Shown here: one piece after another, positions 7,992 to 36,445 of the stretch
How the letters are laid out: each line of letters begins with the position of its first letter
Numbering within the stretch: position 1 is the first letter of the stretch
Sequence record: PZ445440.1
From: a phage
Length of the DNA: 64,000 bases
Direction: 5' to 3' (one strand)
Made by a program: the position numbers and the translations under genes
The notes under the pieces: generated by a model
The model's input: only the letters and a program-made list of their open reading frames with translations
Database searches by the model: none
Told to the model about the DNA's origin: nothing

Positions 7992-8274
7992 GAGAAATAA
8001 TTCCTTGATAAGCCCAGTACGGCGGGTTAACAGAATCATCACCAGAATTTTCTTCAGGGAAATAAACCTGAATAACGAATCCGGATTCGTCAAAGGTAAA
8101 ATACACTGTAGGCAGTTCACCAAGCAATTCGGAACGAGCGTTAATTTCTTCGAGGTCTTGCTCACGTCCAGCCCAAAAACTAGGATTTAAACTACATTCG
8201 TAAAAATAATAGTCATTACCGAACATATCAAAACCCTTCCAACTCTCTACCACGTACCGCTCAAAACTAATCAT
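7963..8274 (-). CDS. hypothetical protein (103 aa)
   Basis: ORF track; ATG start. Confidence 0.6.
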   Translation of the reverse strand: MISFERYVVESWKGFDMFGNDYYFYECSLNPSFWAGREQDLEEINARSELLGELPTVYFTFDESGFVIQVYFPEENSGDDSVNPPYWAYQGIISRGTKLEPKE

Positions 8275-8276
8275 AA

Positions 8277-8492
8277 TTAAGCCTTTTTATCAAGAACAGA
8301 ATTCAGTTTATTAGTAATTTTGTCCAAACGTTCATTGAATTCGCTGGAGGATAAACCCTTTTCTGGAGAAATTAAACTAATCACGAAAAATACACCAGTA
8401 AAAGGAATAAGAAAAATAGCTCCAACTGCCATAAACAAAAAGAACGTTACAGTTGTAAGAAAATCAGCTAAACCTTTACGAAATTTGTACAT
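8277..8492 (-). CDS. small membrane protein (71 aa, one hydrophobic helix)
   Basis: ORF track; hydrophobic stretch TVTFFLFMAVGAIFLIPFTGVFFVISLI. Confidence 0.6.
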   Translation of the reverse strand: MYKFRKGLADFLTTVTFFLFMAVGAIFLIPFTGVFFVISLISPEKGLSSSEFNERLDKITNKLNSVLDKKA

Positions 8493-9073: not shown

Positions 9074-10887
9074 TGGTGTTTAACCCTATGCATGATTTCT
9101 TTATTTTTGCCTAGATTAAATCCGCGTTCGTTTGGATTTCCCAAATAACCGCATGTTCTTCTTATTGTGTTCATCTTTTTAGGATCAGTTTCTCCGCAAA
9201 CTGAACAAACAAATCCATTTTCAGTAGGAGTCATTTCATGAGTACTTCCGCATGTAAAACATTTATCTACTGGCATATTAACACCAAAATAATCTAAATG
9301 TTGTGCAGCATAATCCCAGACAGCCTCAAGTCCTTTTAAGTTATTTTTCATATCAGGAAGTTCAACATAAGAAATGTGACCACCTGTCGCAATGAAATGA
9401 TATGGCGCTTCACGAGAAATCTTTTCAAACGGAGTAATATTTTCTTCTACTGAAACATGGAAACTATTAGTGTACCAGCCTTTATCGGTAACATCTTTTA
9501 CGCTTCCATATTTTTCTGTATCGAGTTTACAAAAGCGATAACAAAGGTTTTCAGCAGGAGTAGAATATAAACTAAAAGCAAATCCGGTTCTTTCAGTCCA
9601 CTGTTTAAGATGAGCATTCATTTTAGTTAAAATTTCTTGTCCAATATCACGACCGACAAGAATATTCAATTCGTGAATACCGATGTATCCCAAAGACACT
9701 GAACTTCTACCATTTTTAAATAACTCAATTATGTCATCATCAGGTTTAAGACGAACCCCGAATGCACCTTCTTGGTAAAGAATAGGAGCAACAGTAGCTT
9801 TAACTCCTTTTAAGGAACTAATTCTACACATCAAGGCTTCAAAACACAGGTCCATTCGCTCGTCGAACAATTCAGTAAATTTCTGTTCATTGAACTGTGT
9901 TCCAATATAAGAATCTAATGCGATACGAGGAAGATTCAGTGTTACAACACCGAGATTATTACGTCCATCAAGAATTTCATTACCAGTCGAATCTTTCCAT
10001 ACGCTCAAGAAACTACGGCAGCCCATTGGAGAAACTGGAACTGAAGAACCGGTAATAGCTTTATTATTCTTAACCGAAATAATGTCAGGATACATTCTTT
10101 TGCTTGCACATTCTAACGCAAGTTGTTTAATATCATAGTTCGGATCATCTTTATAAAGATTAACACCTTCTTCAACAAACATAACAAGCTTAGGGAAAAT
10201 AGGAGTTATTCCATCACGACCAAGACCTTTAATGCGGTTTTTAAGAATTGCCTTCTGAATCATTCGTTCAGTCCAATCGGTTCCCGTACCAAATGTAATT
10301 GTTACAAAAGGAGTTTGTCCGTTTGAACTAAAGAGAGTATTTACTTCATATTCATAAGCTTGGAATGCGTCATAGACATCTTTTTCTGTTTTAGATTGAG
10401 CATAATTCAGAATGTCTGGTATTTGCCATTTTTCTGCATCTTCAACATGTTTAGCGTATGTGCGTTTAACATAAGGAGAAAGAACTTTATCGACATTCGC
10501 AAATGTAGTTCCGCCATACTGGTGTGAAGCAACTTGCGCGGTAATTTGTGCCATAATTGCAGTAGCAACGCCAATTGATTTAGGAGTTTCAATCTGTGCA
10601 TTACCAAGCTTAAATCCGTTCTCAAGCATTCCTTTTAAATCTACTAAACAGCAATTAGTAAATGGAAGAGCAGGAGAATAATCAATATCATGCATGTGAA
10701 TGATTCCGCTTTCATGCGCATTCATAATAAAAGACGGGACCATATTTTTGGCAATGTGCTTAGACACAATACCAGCCATAAGGTCCCGTTGAGTTGGAAA
10801 AACACGAGAATCTTTATTAGCATTCTCGTTCAAAAGATCTTTATTAGTTTTATGAATTAATCCTTCAATTTCTTTTTCAATTTTCAT
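9070..10887 (-). CDS. nrdD: anaerobic ribonucleoside-triphosphate reductase NrdD (intronless)
   Basis: 605 aa uninterrupted ORF; C-terminal zinc-ribbon cysteines CFTCGS...CSVCG and glycyl radical region TCGYLG. Confidence 0.95.
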   Translation of the reverse strand: MKIEKEIEGLIHKTNKDLLNENANKDSRVFPTQRDLMAGIVSKHIAKNMVPSFIMNAHESGIIHMHDIDYSPALPFTNCCLVDLKGMLENGFKLGNAQIETPKSIGVATAIMAQITAQVASHQYGGTTFANVDKVLSPYVKRTYAKHVEDAEKWQIPDILNYAQSKTEKDVYDAFQAYEYEVNTLFSSNGQTPFVTITFGTGTDWTERMIQKAILKNRIKGLGRDGITPIFPKLVMFVEEGVNLYKDDPNYDIKQLALECASKRMYPDIISVKNNKAITGSSVPVSPMGCRSFLSVWKDSTGNEILDGRNNLGVVTLNLPRIALDSYIGTQFNEQKFTELFDERMDLCFEALMCRISSLKGVKATVAPILYQEGAFGVRLKPDDDIIELFKNGRSSVSLGYIGIHELNILVGRDIGQEILTKMNAHLKQWTERTGFAFSLYSTPAENLCYRFCKLDTEKYGSVKDVTDKGWYTNSFHVSVEENITPFEKISREAPYHFIATGGHISYVELPDMKNNLKGLEAVWDYAAQHLDYFGVNMPVDKCFTCGSTHEMTPTENGFVCSVCGETDPKKMNTIRRTCGYLGNPNERGFNLGKNKEIMHRVKHQ

Positions 10888-12790: not shown

Positions 12791-13050
12791 TTAAAATATT
12801 CTCGTAGTTGGTCAAATCCACCAATGTGACTTCCATCAGGAGCAAACACTTGAGGCATAGTCAATCCGACTTGTGATTCACGTCCAAGCTTAACCAGAAG
12901 CTCAGCAATTTTCTCATCATCAAAAACACCTTTTTCTGGCATAACATTAATGAATTCGAACGGCTGTTTCTTAACAGTCAGCAATCGTTTCGCATTATCA
13001 CAATAAATGCATTTATGAATAGTAGAGTCATACCCGTACACTTTAAACAT
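12787..13050 (-). CDS. nrdC: thioredoxin/glutaredoxin NrdC
   Basis: MFKVYGYDSTIHKCIYCDNAKRLL... near-identical to recalled T4 NrdC; start at ATG 13050 with AAGGAAAA upstream (track start 13065 over-extended). Confidence 0.9.
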   Translation of the reverse strand: MFKVYGYDSTIHKCIYCDNAKRLLTVKKQPFEFINVMPEKGVFDDEKIAELLVKLGRESQVGLTMPQVFAPDGSHIGGFDQLREYFK

Positions 13051-13456
13051 TATTTTTCCTTTCATCGATTAAATATGCAATGCCAAATACAATACATGTA
13101 ATAAAACCTGTGATACAGATAGAAACCAACAACACCGTACCAAAGAACCAAATCAAGTTATCTTTAGTAGTTTGTTTGATATCCATCTCACGAATTTCTA
13201 TAGCTATCGTATCACCTTTATTCAGAAGCGTATAAAACGACGGTGATACACGCCTGTCAAAAACTCGTCCTTGTTCATCTTTATAAACTGCAATAAATTC
13301 TAATTTAGAATATTTTCCTGTAGATTGGCCTGAGATTAATTCCACTACCTCCACAGGAATTACTTTAGTTTCCATGTAAGTATTCTGGCTGTTCCAAATG
13401 AATGGAATGATGGCAAAAACTAAAGCTGCAATAAAACAACGAAGGCTATATCTCAT
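13043..13456 (-). CDS. membrane protein (two predicted TM helices)
   Basis: ORF track; N- and C-terminal hydrophobic segments. Confidence 0.65.
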   Translation of the reverse strand: MRYSLRCFIAALVFAIIPFIWNSQNTYMETKVIPVEVVELISGQSTGKYSKLEFIAVYKDEQGRVFDRRVSPSFYTLLNKGDTIAIEIREMDIKQTTKDNLIWFFGTVLLVSICITGFITCIVFGIAYLIDERKNNV

Positions 13457-13761
13457 TATAATGTTCTCTCAAATTTGTGGAAGCATTTACGGCATTTCAA
13501 TTTCAAGTTATCAGTGGTCCAGTTAACCAGTTGGACTTGGATAGTTCCACATTCCGGACATGGATGTTTTGCTGCCGATTTGGCAGCATTTTCACGTCGT
13601 TCAACCATTTTCATGATTTCGTTCCATGCCGGAGGAACGAACTCTTCTTCACTATGAATTTTATCTCGTTGAACAAATTCAATCTTTGAACTATCGTCAA
13701 TAAACTTAACCAAGCGGTGATTAGTGTTCATATCAATATCTTCTAAAAGACGTAGTTTCAT
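13456..13761 (-). CDS. zinc-ribbon protein (CPEC...CRKC)
   Basis: ORF track; two CxxC pairs; TAATG overlaps on both sides. Confidence 0.65.
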   Translation of the reverse strand: MKLRLLEDIDMNTNHRLVKFIDDSSKIEFVQRDKIHSEEEFVPPAWNEIMKMVERRENAAKSAAKHPCPECGTIQVQLVNWTTDNLKLKCRKCFHKFERTL

Positions 13762-14711
13762 TATAACACCTCAATGGCATTTCGTAAACCATCCGCTTTA
13801 GCATTCAGAGCTTTTAACGATTTAGTTTGTTCTGCAATCTGGGCTTCGACTTCTTTCAGACGAGATTTGAGATATTCGCGTTCTTCTCTTAAGTTATCAA
13901 CTTTTTCTGCTTTAGGCTCTTTAATAGACTTAGGTTTATATGTATTAGGGTTCTTCAACTTAATTTGAATGCGAGAACTGAATAACATCGAACCGTTATC
14001 TTCGGTTTCACTGTGCATTTCTACCACATCCATGATTCTTAACATCATGCGAAGTTTATAAGACAGCGAACGAACGGTTTTATTGTGCTTCTTAATTTCT
14101 TCAGCTTTCATGGTGCCGAGATTACGTGAGTAGTAATAAGGAACCTGGATATCAATTGATAATGATGCGTTACCATTACCAGTTGGTTTGAATACTGCAG
14201 TAACCCAATCTTTAACATGAACTTTATTTGTACGATCATCGCCGCCTGTGAATAATTTACAAGAATGTTTAAAAAGCATATTCACTTGGTTATTGAATTC
14301 ACAAGCAAATTTATCAGCAAATTTAGTTTCAGGAATGGTAGTTAACCATTCAGCCAAATGAGTCTTTTTAACATCATTAACAATAGTGAATTCAACCAAA
14401 TCGGTTTTAGTTGTCACAGATTTAATAAAGCTCGGCTTCATAAAGTTTTTAATGTTATCGCGAGCTACAGTAGAAGATAATAAACGAGAACGTTTGAACC
14501 ATTGAAGCAACGTCCCTAACGAATGAGAATACGCATTTTGAGTATCTTTACAGATATGATTTTCTTGGCCTATGTATGTACCAAAATCGCGAAGAATACC
14601 ACTTACTACATCTCGGTGTGGAACATCAAATCCTAGTGCACCAGAAGCACGTTGGGCATGAACGTTAGCGATAAGACCTGCAAAGTATTCAATGTAATGT
14701 GAACGTGTCAT
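13761..14711 (-). CDS. hypothetical protein with C-terminal coiled coil (316 aa)
   Basis: ORF track; ATG with GAGAGGAAAA upstream; own promoter element upstream. Confidence 0.7.
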   Translation of the reverse strand: MTRSHYIEYFAGLIANVHAQRASGALGFDVPHRDVVSGILRDFGTYIGQENHICKDTQNAYSHSLGTLLQWFKRSRLLSSTVARDNIKNFMKPSFIKSVTTKTDLVEFTIVNDVKKTHLAEWLTTIPETKFADKFACEFNNQVNMLFKHSCKLFTGGDDRTNKVHVKDWVTAVFKPTGNGNASLSIDIQVPYYYSRNLGTMKAEEIKKHNKTVRSLSYKLRMMLRIMDVVEMHSETEDNGSMLFSSRIQIKLKNPNTYKPKSIKEPKAEKVDNLREEREYLKSRLKEVEAQIAEQTKSLKALNAKADGLRNAIEVL

Positions 14712-14730
14712 AATATTTTCCTCTCGTTAA

Positions 14731-14773
14731 GATAGATTCATTATACTCCAACCATCCTTGGTTGTAAACTATT
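14731..14773 (-). promoter_or_regulatory. early promoter (GTTTACA, 17-18 bp spacer with CCAACCA/TGGTTGG inverted repeat, TATAAT)
   Basis: Read in sequence; repeated at 15751..15790 and in variant form at 36398..36440. Confidence 0.5.
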
Positions 14774-15733
14774 TTATGATTTTAATGCATTCATTGCGTT
14801 AAAAAGTTTAGAATACTGCAACTGGAGATTCGTTACAACACTTTGAGCATCACGAAGCTTAGCTTGTGCTTTGTCAAGTTCAACAGACAGTTGGTCTACA
14901 GTAGCCTTGATTTGGTTGTAATGATAATCTTCGGCTGGAAGAAGGTCATTAGAAACATTTAGTTTTACTGCAGACAGTTTGCACACATTTGGTAAACCTT
15001 TAAACATTGATTTACCTGAAGTAGAATAAGCACTTAGGACTTCAGCCTGTTCAATTGGGGTCCCAGTAAGCGATGCTTCGAACGTTGCATTTTCCTTTTT
15101 AAGATTTTGATAGTATTCAGAGTCTTTGTGCCACCATGGCGCAGGAACCTTTTTACCAATAGATACACGAGCCTGGATAGCGATATGGCCCTTATTCTTG
15201 ATAGGGTCGATAATATTAAGCTCACGAGAATAAATTGCTTTAATCTCATGGATATTATCGCCTAACACTTCTAGCGCTTGGTGGAATACACGAGCAACGT
15301 TATCATTCTTAGGTTTATACGTAAGAGTGAACTCGTTCTCACTGATAACCATGATTTCTAACTTATCGTAAGTGTACTTAAGATGCTTCATGTTAACCGC
15401 TTGAGGACGAATACGAGAAGCAATGGCCATCAGATTGTTAAGGTTATTCCGGAACTGCTTAGCGAAATATTGTCCTTCACCACCAATACAAAAATTACGA
15501 AGTTTCTGTTTGGCTAATAAACGGCTGAACTCACCATTTTTAATGAACTCTTTAACGGGTGTGTTAGTAACGCATTCAAATTGAGTAAACTTACGAGAAT
15601 TAATCCCATAATACGAACAGATTTCCTCAATCTCTTCAGGAGTCTTTACAGGCATACGGATAGGATTAGGTCCTGGAGTATATGCGTTCGAGGTAAATTC
15701 TTTGATAAGTTCTTTACGTGTAATAAAAGCCAT
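14774..15733 (-). CDS. hypothetical protein with C-terminal coiled coil (319 aa)
   Basis: ORF track; ATG with TGAGGAA upstream. Confidence 0.7.
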   Translation of the reverse strand: MAFITRKELIKEFTSNAYTPGPNPIRMPVKTPEEIEEICSYYGINSRKFTQFECVTNTPVKEFIKNGEFSRLLAKQKLRNFCIGGEGQYFAKQFRNNLNNLMAIASRIRPQAVNMKHLKYTYDKLEIMVISENEFTLTYKPKNDNVARVFHQALEVLGDNIHEIKAIYSRELNIIDPIKNKGHIAIQARVSIGKKVPAPWWHKDSEYYQNLKKENATFEASLTGTPIEQAEVLSAYSTSGKSMFKGLPNVCKLSAVKLNVSNDLLPAEDYHYNQIKATVDQLSVELDKAQAKLRDAQSVVTNLQLQYSKLFNAMNALKS

Positions 15734-15750
15734 TTTATATTCCTCATGTT

Positions 15751-15790
15751 GAAAAATTTATTATACTCCAACCATCCTTGGTTGTACATC
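15751..15790 (-). promoter_or_regulatory. early-promoter-like repeat (copy of 14731..14773 element)
   Basis: Shared 26-nt core ttatactccaaccatccttggttgta. Confidence 0.45.
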
Positions 15791-16625
15791 ATTCCTTAAG
15801 AAGTTTTACTACCTGAATAAGATTAGCTCGTTCTGTTTTATTTTTACCGTTTAAGCCTGCTAATCGTGAGATTTCATCGTCAGTCTGTTGAATAGTTACA
15901 TTAAGTTCGTTAATCAAAGCTTCAAAGTATTTGATTTGCTCAGCATGTTTTGATTCAAATTTCTGAACCGGAATAACGTCTTGGTTTAGTTCATCAATAA
16001 GGTCTTTAAGAGCATCTTCTTGGTTGATATCATATTCAACTTCTTTTATTTCTTCAACGAGCTCGTCTTTATATCTAACGTCTTTTAGTCCTGGTGCTGG
16101 TCCTGAAATCTCTTCTTTAAGAGTACAAACATATCCAATACGGTATCCAATGCCGGCTCGCTTGATATCAACTTCGTCGATAAATCCACAATGTTTAAGC
16201 CCGGAGCCGATTAGGTCAAAATATCCTTGACGTCGTCCTTCAAACGTTACATGAACTACTAAGACAGTTTTACCTGCAACCTTTTGAAGCTCACATTTAT
16301 AAAAGTCAGTTGAACCTGAATAACGTGGATGAGTTTTAAAGTTCATCTGACGATCTAGGCCCATTTGTAAACGCGCTGTTACGGCCAGAAAACGTGTTTG
16401 GTTCTCGTTAAGATGAGCAACAATCCATTTCAAAGGCATTTTACATTGGTCACGACAGAACAAATCAACATATCCAAGATTACGAAGGATATTGTTAGAG
16501 TTAATCATCGACAGAACGTTAAGTTTATTCAGCGCGCTGAAGATTCCATCAGCCATTGATTTTCCGTAACCTTTACACGCTTTAATAAGTGCTCGCGGCA
16601 GATTAGTATAGATTTCAGACGGCAT
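15789..16625 (-). CDS. hypothetical protein with C-terminal coiled coil (278 aa; start uncertain, alternative ATG 16556)
   Basis: ORF track; N-terminal 97 nt overlaps ORF 16529..16786 in another frame. Confidence 0.65.
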   Translation of the reverse strand: MPSEIYTNLPRALIKACKGYGKSMADGIFSALNKLNVLSMINSNNILRNLGYVDLFCRDQCKMPLKWIVAHLNENQTRFLAVTARLQMGLDRQMNFKTHPRYSGSTDFYKCELQKVAGKTVLVVHVTFEGRRQGYFDLIGSGLKHCGFIDEVDIKRAGIGYRIGYVCTLKEEISGPAPGLKDVRYKDELVEEIKEVEYDINQEDALKDLIDELNQDVIPVQKFESKHAEQIKYFEALINELNVTIQQTDDEISRLAGLNGKNKTERANLIQVVKLLKE

Positions 16626-16786
16626 ATGAAAATCAAATTTACTCTAACCAGTAATTGATGAACTTGGATAGCAATTTGTTCATAATTAAGTGCTCTGCGA
16701 TCATTATGGTCTTTAAACCACACTTTAATCTGTGAAGCACATAAACCGTTAATTTCATGTTTTACCGCATCAGATGTAATGCTCAT
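16529..16786 (-). CDS. hypothetical protein (85 aa)
   Basis: ORF track; ATG with strong GAGGAAA upstream; overlaps next gene. Confidence 0.45.
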   Translation of the reverse strand: MSITSDAVKHEINGLCASQIKVWFKDHNDRRALNYEQIAIQVHQLLVRVNLIFICRLKSILICREHLLKRVKVTENQWLMESSAR

Positions 16787-16848
16787 AACTATTTCCTCAG
16801 ATTGAATTGGAACTCAAAACCATTATAACCCGTCCTTGGGTAAAGCGT

Positions 16849-17376
16849 TTATGCGTGAACCGTCTTTAAACGTTCTTCAAATTTCCGAAGAGTACTAATA
16901 CGTTCTGCTTTCTGTTTTGTATAGTTTGCAATACGTTCTGAAGTGAGAGCGTATCGTTCGTTTACTGTTTCTTTCATGAAGTCAGTGATTTCACGAGAAG
17001 CTTTAATTTCATCAAACTTATCGAGTACTGCCTGATCTTCAGCAATTAAATTTTCGTACATCTCGATATCTTTCTTGATGAAGTCGATATCTTCCTGGGT
17101 TACTTTGGATAAACGAGATGCTTTATCCTTTTTGTATTGCTCGTTAGTTTCACGAGACCAGAATAATGTACGGTTTTTGTTGGTGTTTTTGTAGACTTCC
17201 ACAATTCCAACTGAATCGATGATAACAATCCAATTCCAGCGAGATTTGAAAATCTGACCTCCGTCCACGGTAATCTCGTTACCATAAGCAACATCATTAA
17301 AGAACTTGCTTTGTGCTTCAGATTTAAATTTACCGTCGTTATAATTTACCAGGTTGAAAATATCTTTAGCGTTCAT
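16849..17376 (-). CDS. hypothetical protein with C-terminal helical tail (175 aa)
   Basis: ORF track; ATG with GGAGGTAAAAC upstream. Confidence 0.7.
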   Translation of the reverse strand: MNAKDIFNLVNYNDGKFKSEAQSKFFNDVAYGNEITVDGGQIFKSRWNWIVIIDSVGIVEVYKNTNKNRTLFWSRETNEQYKKDKASRLSKVTQEDIDFIKKDIEMYENLIAEDQAVLDKFDEIKASREITDFMKETVNERYALTSERIANYTKQKAERISTLRKFEERLKTVHA

Positions 17377-17391
17377 GTTTTACCTCCAGTA

Positions 17392-17435
17392 GTTGATAGG
17401 TCTATAATAACATAACCATAGACCTTGTAAACAAC
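17392..17435 (-). promoter_or_regulatory. early promoter with stem-loop (GTTTACA ... TATTAT inside AGGTCTAT/ATAGACCT inverted repeat)
   Basis: Read in sequence. Confidence 0.5.
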
Positions 17436-18869: not shown

Positions 18870-18912
18870 TCGATAGGTCTATAATAACATATCCTAAAAG
18901 CATGTACACTAC
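18870..18912 (-). promoter_or_regulatory. early-promoter-like element upstream of the ATPase gene
   Basis: gataggtctataataacat...gtacac motif of the same repeat family. Confidence 0.45.
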
Positions 18913-35274: not shown

Positions 35275-35868
35275 TTATTTCAAAGAGTTAATATATTCTT
35301 GTACATCAGCAGAAGTGGTTTCGACACCGGCTGGAGTGCCATTGAACGTTTCAACACGAGTCAGAGTGTCTTCGATATCAACCTTAGTCAGTGCAGCGAT
35401 TTCAATTACATCATCGGCCGTAGAGATACCAAGGGCATTGGCTGCTCGAGTTTCACGAATGTATTCGAGTTTGATTGCCAGGTTCTGACGAGCATCATCA
35501 AGTTCAACCACCTTACGAGCAATTTCAATTCGCATAGCGGCATACCCGTCAGCTTTTGTATTAAGTTGTTCTGCAGTTCGACGATACAGAAGACCAAGCT
35601 TAGCATGCATGGTAACATCTTGTCCTTCAGCCAAGAGCTTACGAATTTCACGTTCCTTAGAAGCGGCTTGCTTATTCTTTTCAATAACAAGTTCGCGAAT
35701 ACGTTTTTCTTCATTAATAGATTTAACAGAAGCCGTTTTTAGTTCTTTGATTTGGGTAATCAACTTATCTGCAGCTGCGTTATACTGTTCTTCGACAGTC
35801 AGATTTTTAGCCATAGCAGTACCCAGTTTAGTGCGGATGAATTCAACAAGTTTCTTCAGTGTGTTCAT
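35275..35868 (-). CDS. coiled-coil protein (about 197 aa)
   Basis: ORF track 35275..35883; ATG 35868; heptad-rich throughout. Confidence 0.7.
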
Positions 35869-35894
35869 ATTATTACCTTTCAATTGGTGGTTTA

Positions 35895-36377: not shown

Positions 36378-36445
36378 TTTGTTTACTCCTCTGTAGTTAA
36401 TAAGTCTATAGTATCACCATCCTTGGTGCTTGTACATCATTATTT

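Follow-up and report, generated by a model that had tools for sequence, protein, structure and literature searches.

The nrdC.x genes of bacteriophage T4 are classic 'hypothetical' early genes, but recent work has shown that one of them overcomes a sirtuin defence. When T4 nrdC.5 was expressed, phage could again plate on MG1655 with dsr1, a gene for a SIR2-domain (sirtuin) defence protein, and disruption of host dsr1 restored infection (Srikant, Guegler and Laub 2022, PMC9391042); the Dsr1 sensor, shared with Avs7, is reported to recognise the phage major capsid protein (2026 Nature paper, PMC13581612). In the literature on nrdC.3, nrdC.4, nrdC.5, nrdC.6 and nrdC.8, no mechanism is reported for NrdC.5, including a Dsr1 interaction or protection of NAD+. 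Here we describe four adjoining open reading frames (ORFs) in a 64,000-nucleotide stretch of phage DNA (sequence record PZ445440.1, hereafter the window), which had been predicted to encode modular proteins with unrelated N-terminal domains and similar C-terminal coiled-coil tails. Profile comparisons indicate that three of them, together with the nrdC.4 gene of related phages, are diverged tandem paralogs of a single Straboviridae-specific superfamily and not domain shuffles, because homology runs along the body as well as the tail.

Other described systems resemble these genes in part. The T4 internal proteins IPI-III likewise form a variable accessory set with one short terminal module, a hyperplastic locus and anti-defence roles (PMC4122927). 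The promoter-early stem-loop (PeSL) elements are repeated intergenic T4/PST cassettes that combine the consensus TTTACW-N17-TAYWAT with a stem-loop and a Shine-Dalgarno (SD) sequence (Arbiol 2010, PMC2839356; Comeau 2014, PMC4122927), and the genes described here lie in the published hyperplastic region that carries them (PMC4122927). The likeness to DSAD1 of Bacillus phages, which inhibits DSR2, is by function only, that of a phage protein neutralising a SIR2-type abortive-infection effector; sequence and structure searches detected no sequence or fold relationship between the superfamily and DSAD1 or other inhibitors of NADase defences.

The window is 100% identical to MZ501056.1, Escherichia phage ChristianSchoenbein (Bas46; Straboviridae, Tevenvirinae, Mosigvirus), in which all four ORFs are annotated only as hypothetical proteins. 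The original prediction had located the ORFs correctly, all on the minus strand, and had matched none to a characterised T4 protein. Comparison with the ORFs of NC_000866 using blastp, along with synteny, identified them as positional orthologs of T4 nrdC.3, nrdC.5, nrdC.6 and nrdC.8, including the characterised, Dsr1-overcoming nrdC.5 (PMC9391042):

13761..14711, minus strand: nrdC.3 ortholog (316 aa); 55% identical to T4 NrdC.3 by blastp (E=1.7e-117), phrog_1435
14774..15733, minus strand: nrdC.5 ortholog (319 aa); Pfam DUF7235 (E=4.2e-123) and position
15789..16786, minus strand: nrdC.6 ortholog, frameshifted; an intact 331-codon gene in Shf125875 and protein cluster P0053
16849..17376, minus strand: nrdC.8 ortholog (175 aa); 83% identical to T4 NrdC.8 by blastp, phrog_2274

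The nrdC.3-like protein matches phrog_1435 at E=1e-104, a family into which T4 NrdC.4 also falls, and PF26897 is found on its homologs. DUF7235 (PF23882) is matched by T4 NrdC.5 as well (E=5e-126), and the window gene sits between nrdC.6 and nrdC.3/4 as T4 nrdC.5 does, making it a positional ortholog despite an identity of 25% over 312 aa (blastp E=2e-10). The ORF 15789..16625, within the nrdC.6 span, is 32% identical to T4 NrdC.6 (blastp E=1e-17) and matches phrog_2257 (E=2e-100). RB69-based annotation of a close Mosigvirus relative uses the same gene names, in the order nrdC.10-.9-.8-.6-.5-.3-.2-.7-nrdC, nrdC.4 being missing from Mosigviruses. The genes for NrdC.3, NrdC.4, NrdC.5 and NrdC.6 keep a conserved position between nrdC.10/nrdC.8 and nrdC.2/nrdC.

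Between the window paralogs, single-sequence comparisons of the bodies (Smith-Waterman against shuffles) were not significant. Shallow profiles built without bridging sequences gave only hints for nrdC.5 and nrdC.6 (hhalign; hidden Markov model against decoys), except that nrdC.3 and nrdC.4 were clearly homologous, aligning over 208 body columns (hhalign 97.6%, E=4e-12). Related loci were gathered from 8 viral contigs via nrdC.8 and from 8 annotated phages of other genera via the conserved nrdC.10, and hmmbuild/hmmsearch was iterated over 925 ORFs from both strands of the window and these loci (inclusion E<=0.01, length >=200 aa). Seeds of nrdC.3+4, nrdC.5 and nrdC.6 each converged on the same 45 of the 925 proteins, comprising all nrdC.3, nrdC.4, nrdC.5 and nrdC.6 copies plus five single-copy genes, with no decoy recruited and nrdC.8 excluded. 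Convergence survived the removal of the last 55 residues of all proteins when the search began from nrdC.3+4 or nrdC.5, and 44 of the 45 were then recovered. The same procedure did not drift when seeded with nrdC.8, nrdC.10 or another ORF. Group profiles augmented with the bridging sequences gave the following hhalign results:

nrdC.3/4 against nrdC.5 groups: full length 98.0% (E=1.6e-13, 225 columns), body only 91%
nrdC.3/4 against nrdC.6 groups: full length 92.3% (E=5.4e-7), body only 66%
nrdC.5 against nrdC.6 groups: full length 91.6% (E=8.3e-7), body only 52%

The tail-less searches and body-only alignments run counter to the claim of unrelated N-terminal domains for nrdC.3, nrdC.5 and nrdC.6; in these comparisons only nrdC.8 stood apart. 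A model in which one mobile coiled-coil module, serving for oligomerisation or targeting, was added to the C-terminus of several unrelated N-terminal domains is compatible with a tail that is the most conserved segment, with the non-significant single-sequence body comparisons, with a C-terminus of nrdC.8 that is heptad-periodic too, and with the separation of nrdC.3/4, nrdC.5 and nrdC.6 in Pfam and PHROGs. It nevertheless appears very improbable, and is largely refuted for nrdC.3, nrdC.5 and nrdC.6, since their bodies are homologous once bridges are included, the bridge-augmented alignments are all co-linear, co-linearity extends from around residue 70 as far as the C-terminus in alignments that have motifs in common, and the nrdC.8 tail has no profile similarity to that of the family. 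The databases hold the members as separate families (PF26897, DUF7235/PF23882 and PF26899; phrog_1435 and phrog_2257). T4 nrdC.3, nrdC.4 and nrdC.6, orthologs or paralogs of 13761..14711 and 15789..16786, are treated there as three unrelated families (PF26897, PF26899, phrog_1435, phrog_2257), whereas the present analysis places them and DUF7235 in a single superfamily. Three Pfam DUF families, including DUF7235, would accordingly become a single clan.

The conserved motifs of the superfamily alignment are hydrophobic and structural, comprising a helix F-x-x-N...L...G, a helix L-x-x-AL-x-x-M-D-x-V, a proline linker and the tail, and it contains no invariant polar residue of an enzyme or catalytic kind. 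Sequence searches of the PDB returned no solved structure related to it. AlphaFold2 (AF2) models were of low confidence and allowed no fold assignment, with a mean predicted local distance difference test (pLDDT) of 53.9 for the nrdC.3-like protein (own multiple sequence alignment) and 41.9 for the nrdC.5-like protein (merged superfamily alignment), the latter usable only in the tail. Both models have the same order of elements, consisting of helices, three strands, a helix, two strands, a linker and a tail helix. The predicted protein of ∼280–350 aa would begin with a variable helical N-terminus, followed by a core of a long helix, three strands, a helix and two strands, and then by a proline-containing linker and a 40–55-residue heptad-periodic helix ending in L-x-x-A-h-x-h-L (h, hydrophobic).

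The tails of the three window members are as follows:

13767..13889, minus strand: nrdC.3-like tail, residues 275-315, ending ...GLRNAIEVL; AF2 helix, pLDDT 70-83
14780..14938, minus strand: nrdC.5-like tail, residues 266-318, ending ...KLFNAMNALKS; AF2 helix, pLDDT 67-87
15792..15947, minus strand: nrdC.6-like tail, last ∼52 residues, ending ...NLIQVVKLLKE; family period 3.5, P=0.002

A crude single-sequence heptad score placed its best stretch in the tail of all four ORF products (4/4) and beat shuffles only for the nrdC.5-like protein (P=0.002). Because it was significant for one tail only, periodicity was measured at the family level, as the fraction of hydrophobic residues per tail alignment column. 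The strongest period of the hydrophobic columns was 3.5 in the nrdC.3, nrdC.4, nrdC.5 and nrdC.6 families (P=0.0002–0.002; nrdC.3, P=0.0008; nrdC.5, P=0.001; nrdC.6, P=0.002), in the pooled superfamily tail (P<0.0002) and, for nrdC.8, over the final 84 columns (P<0.0002). The heptad-rich helical C-termini predicted for all four proteins were thereby confirmed, with AF2 helices in support for the nrdC.3- and nrdC.5-like proteins; as a coiled-coil signature, the 3.5-residue periodicity lies in a long proline-free helix, with a weak single-sequence score for 3 of the 4.

The tail is also the best conserved part of the NrdC.3, NrdC.4, NrdC.5 and NrdC.6 proteins. Between ortholog lineages, body and tail identities were 0.26 and 0.60 for nrdC.6 (ranges 23–26% and 58–60%), 0.21 and 0.39 for nrdC.5, 0.40 and 0.53 for nrdC.4, and 0.53 and 0.63 for nrdC.3, an order that is reversed in nrdC.8 (0.86 and 0.76). 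One could regard the tails as generic amphipathic helices lacking a common function, alike through coiled-coil composition and adjacent by coincidence. Pairwise Smith-Waterman scores of the window paralogs' tails against shuffles are indeed marginal (z<=2.9), and the unrelated neighbour nrdC.8 has a similar-looking C-terminus. We consider this improbable all the same, given that within ortholog groups the tail is more conserved than the body, that the tail profiles of nrdC.3 and nrdC.5 align over 46 columns (P=1.3e-4), and that the terminal motif L-x-x-A-h-x-h-L and the heptad register align end to end in all lineages, including the single-copy genera. The predicted similarity of the tails therefore holds for nrdC.3, nrdC.5 and nrdC.6 at the profile level, but not for nrdC.8. 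A conserved tail fits a putative module for oligomerisation or for binding a shared partner. It differs from the capsid-targeting module of IPI-III, which is N-terminal, ∼10 residues long and cleaved, and is carried by unrelated bodies, while in NrdC.3, NrdC.4, NrdC.5 and NrdC.6 the bodies are homologous and the common part is a C-terminal helix of 40–55 residues.

The nrdC.8-like protein consists of a small N-terminal domain and an amphipathic helical C-terminal half of ∼84 residues (16852-17103). Its membership in the superfamily was rejected: hhalign against the superfamily profile gave a probability of 0.3%, it missed the inclusion threshold in every iterative run (E=0.016–0.1), an nrdC.8 seed recruited no NrdC.3, NrdC.4, NrdC.5 or NrdC.6 member, and its conservation pattern is the reverse. 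It is best regarded as an unrelated, well-conserved neighbour whose long amphipathic helical C-terminus is coincidental. A family with a conserved C-terminal tail thus exists as the original prediction proposed, but without the unrelated N-terminal domains and without nrdC.8; the observation was largely right and its interpretation half right.

Mosigvirus and a Dhaka-like lineage (loci L010-L012) each have 3 superfamily copies, Tequatrovirus has 4, and five other genera have 1. The gene order is C8-C7-C6-C5-C4-C3 in Tequatrovirus and C8-C6-C5-C4 in the Dhaka-like lineage. At the equivalent site, Winklervirus, Gelderlandvirus, Jiaodavirus, Karamvirus and Acinetobacter Lazarusvirus each carry one gene of 323–352 aa, with a helical tail and weak matches to several family profiles; the loci sampled from Aeromonas and Cronobacter phages, which have lost the synteny, showed no member. 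When a profile of three families was run exhaustively with HMMER against 1.84 billion representatives, it returned 11 matches and missed the single-copy bridges; besides T-even proteins and fragments, the matches included two long proteins, of 1399 and 511 aa, that aligned in several short stretches only. Word-indexed homolog searches found close T-even relatives only, even with a mixed alignment. Lineage-to-lineage identity was 21–55% for the NrdC.3/4/5/6 family vs 83% for nrdC.8 and 78% for nrdC.10. Inactivating changes recur, in nrdC.6 of the window, nrdC.6 of the T4 reference, nrdC.4 of locus L005 and nrdC.8 of locus L010, and are consistent with frequent loss of accessory genes. In L005 (10948-11980) nrdC.4 is split into ORFs of 193 and 158 aa, and in L010 nrdC.8 is cut to 141 aa (8001-8426) and nrdC.5 to 268 aa (9530-10336). 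Under this scheme, the single gene of other genera would have expanded to 3–4 copies in coliphage T-evens, where the bodies diverge fast and the tail is kept, each copy having its own early promoter cassette.

By extension from the ability of T4 NrdC.5 to overcome Dsr1, we think it probable that the array encodes fast-evolving, early, non-enzymatic anti-defence binders oligomerised by their conserved tail. The body, being variable, would track host immune proteins over evolution, either by binding such a protein or by shielding what triggers it, and the tail would give a dimer or higher oligomer. The data themselves show orthology, paralogy, the periodicity and conservation of the tail, the repeated promoters and the pattern of copy numbers, whereas three parts of this scheme are what we infer, namely the anti-defence function of the window copies, oligomerisation by the tail, and binding as opposed to catalysis; the last is supported by the lack of invariant polar or catalytic residues in the alignment. 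Circumstantial support comes from one member with a counter-defence role, divergence of the body with a constrained tail, lineage-specific expansion and loss, and the hyperplastic location. The ORF 14774..15733 shares with T4 NrdC.5 (PMC9391042) its Pfam family, position, length class, tail and early-gene status. NCBIfam and PADLOC profiles gave only sub-threshold coiled-coil noise with these proteins.

Several observations weigh against this interpretation. The nrdC.6-body seed alone stalled, its next-best match being the Karamvirus bridge, and the link of nrdC.6 to the other members depends on the bridge sequences, with modest body-only probabilities (52–66%). The AF2 models reach a pLDDT of only 42 and 54, so that a common fold of the paralogs is putative. 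Oligomerisation through the tail is deduced from periodicity only, and the literature on nrdC.3, nrdC.4 and nrdC.6 yielded no published phenotype. The anti-Dsr1 effect is known for the T4 protein only, and may have been lost in the window protein, which is only 21–25% identical to T4 NrdC.5.

These genes might alternatively encode early host-takeover or regulatory adaptors (acting e.g. on host transcription, replication or proteolysis) that do not serve defence in general, the anti-Dsr1 effect of NrdC.5 being a special or indirect case. An early promoter before each gene, neighbours for nucleotide metabolism and host takeover (pin, nrdC, nrdD), a phenotype for one member only, and the conservation of one copy in each of five other genera, suggestive of a basal function, all agree with such a role. 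However, core takeover functions do not typically diverge very fast, expand in particular lineages or suffer frequent inactivation, and T4 deletions across the region are viable on laboratory hosts, with only specific hosts lost (PMC9391042). We therefore rate this alternative as unlikely, and favour the anti-defence interpretation, under which the lone anti-Dsr1 gene would become part of a candidate family of counter-defence genes, and the superfamily would help account for differences in host range among therapeutic T-even phages. Overall, the analysis usefully consolidates these genes and makes predictions that can be tested, but does not reveal a new kind of system.

The nrdC.6 copy of the window is probably inactive in this isolate. 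Alignment to locus L003 shows that its 998-nt span (15789..16786) is broken by an insertion, in agreement with the two-piece tblastn matches of nrdC.6:

16644..16645, minus strand: 2-nt insertion breaking the nrdC.6 frame, unique among 152 phage records

None of the 151 other matching records contains the insertion, all having the shorter in-frame version; hence it would be either a frameshift private to this isolate, and so a recent inactivation, or an error of sequencing or assembly in MZ501056. Upstream, an 85-aa ORF (16529..16786) carries 46 native N-terminal residues and bears the real nrdC.6 SD and promoter, and the 278-aa ORF 15789..16625 contains the rest of the protein, tail included. 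The latter covers positions 55-303 of the phrog_2257 profile, compared with 1-303 for the intact protein, and inspection of the sequence upstream of its ATG at 16625 found no SD and no promoter. The third ORF of the original prediction therefore exists, but it was rejected as a complete gene with its own promoter, being the 3' 278 of 331 codons. The T4 reference nrdC.6 lacks one A that is present in close relatives (L002 position ∼5618; NC_000866 ∼52117); the annotated T4 NrdC.6 ends ...LIFLFNNMMMKFSDYLD, the conserved tail ...DDEIFRLSGLSSKAKSEREKLIKIVDLLKS is intact in another frame, and another T4 record gives a single-piece nrdC.6 match running through the tail.

Early-type promoters and associated hairpins were located as follows:

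14740..14768, minus strand: nrdC.3-like early-type promoter, TTTACA-N17-TATAAT (core 14740-14766)
14749-14764, minus strand: spacer hairpin CAACC-AAGGAT-GGTTG of the nrdC.3-like promoter
15760..15788, minus strand: nrdC.5-like early-type promoter, TGTACA-N17-TATAAT (identical core 15760-15786)
15769-15784, minus strand: spacer hairpin of the nrdC.5-like promoter
16822..16844, minus strand: short-spacer cassette copy before the true nrdC.6 start, TTTACC-N11-TATAAT
16828-16841, minus strand: hairpin ACCC-AAGGAC-GGGT of the nrdC.6 cassette
17404..17431, minus strand: nrdC.8-like early-type promoter, TTTACA-N16-TATTAT
36415-36428, minus strand: fourth AAGGAY hairpin of the window, in an early promoter

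Promoters of their own had been proposed for three of the ORFs, two with an identical 26-nt core; both claims agree with the sequence, the promoters belonging to the nrdC.3-, nrdC.5- and nrdC.8-like genes and the core measuring 27 nt (TACAACCAAGGATGGTTGGAGTATAAT). Exactly 2 copies of this core occur in the window even when three mismatches are allowed, with none expected by chance. The nrdC.8-like and nrdC.10-like (18881-18908, minus strand) promoters share a 19-nt block, ATGTTATTATAGACCTATC, that spans the -10 box and downstream bases and represents a second repeated promoter type of the region.

Across lineages, the spacer hexamer AAGGAY is kept in the promoters of nrdC.3, nrdC.4, nrdC.5, nrdC.6 and nrdC.7, and its flanks vary while staying complementary (CAACC/GGTTG, CATCC/GGATG, AGCC/GGCT, CCAC/GTGG, TATACC/GGTATA, ACCC/GGGT and CACC/GGTG). 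In an unbiased set of promoter-context AAGGAY sites, 9 of the 10 distinct sequences formed a stem of 4–7 bp. Pairing held in 89% of the cells of the hairpin alignment vs 63% in shuffles (0/500 reached the observed value) and 22–49% in slid registers, with variation on both sides at 4 of 5 pairs, as in compensatory change. AAGGAY hairpins were observed 4 times in the window vs 0.37 expected, all within early-promoter spacers, and, among the 13 early-type promoters that have a start downstream, 4 contain the hexamer. Stability is modest (dG -5 to -8 kcal/mol) and there is no T-run. The hairpin may act as a site in the DNA or, if transcripts read through it, as an RNA element.

The window cassettes share with PeSLs the promoter consensus, the SD and start, the hyperplastic region and the flanking variable accessory ORFs. 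In published PeSLs the stem-loop sits immediately upstream of the promoter and serves as a terminator (PMC4122927, PMC2839356), whereas the window hairpin lies between -35 and -10, is only 4–7 bp long and weak, and is not the upstream stem-loop of a PeSL. A covarying hairpin embedded in the spacer is not described in either of these reports (PMC4122927, PMC2839356). AAGGAY hairpins also occur in intergenic regions of loci L002-L012, and GGAG often stands after the spacer hairpin. About 0.5 kb downstream of the fourth hairpin promoter, after ORFs of 54 and 75 aa, lies an ORF of 202 aa (35275-35883, minus strand) that is rich in charged residues and, by eye, possibly helical.

Many records give orthologs of nrdC.3-nrdC.10 the name 'thioredoxin', apparently because the name of the locus was propagated, and T4 nrdC.8 is treated as a nucleotide reductase in one 2026 paper (PMC13275509). 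A Pfam scan matched no nrdC.x protein to a thioredoxin or reductase family; the 'thioredoxin' labels are annotation artefacts and should be removed. A predicted membrane protein that is 41% identical to T4 NrdC.7 is encoded at 13043-13456 (minus strand), between nrdC.2 and nrdC, where T4 has nrdC.1; T4 nrdC.7 itself lies between nrdC.8 and nrdC.6. This placement represents a gene relocation inside the hyperplastic region, beside a short-spacer promoter cassette.

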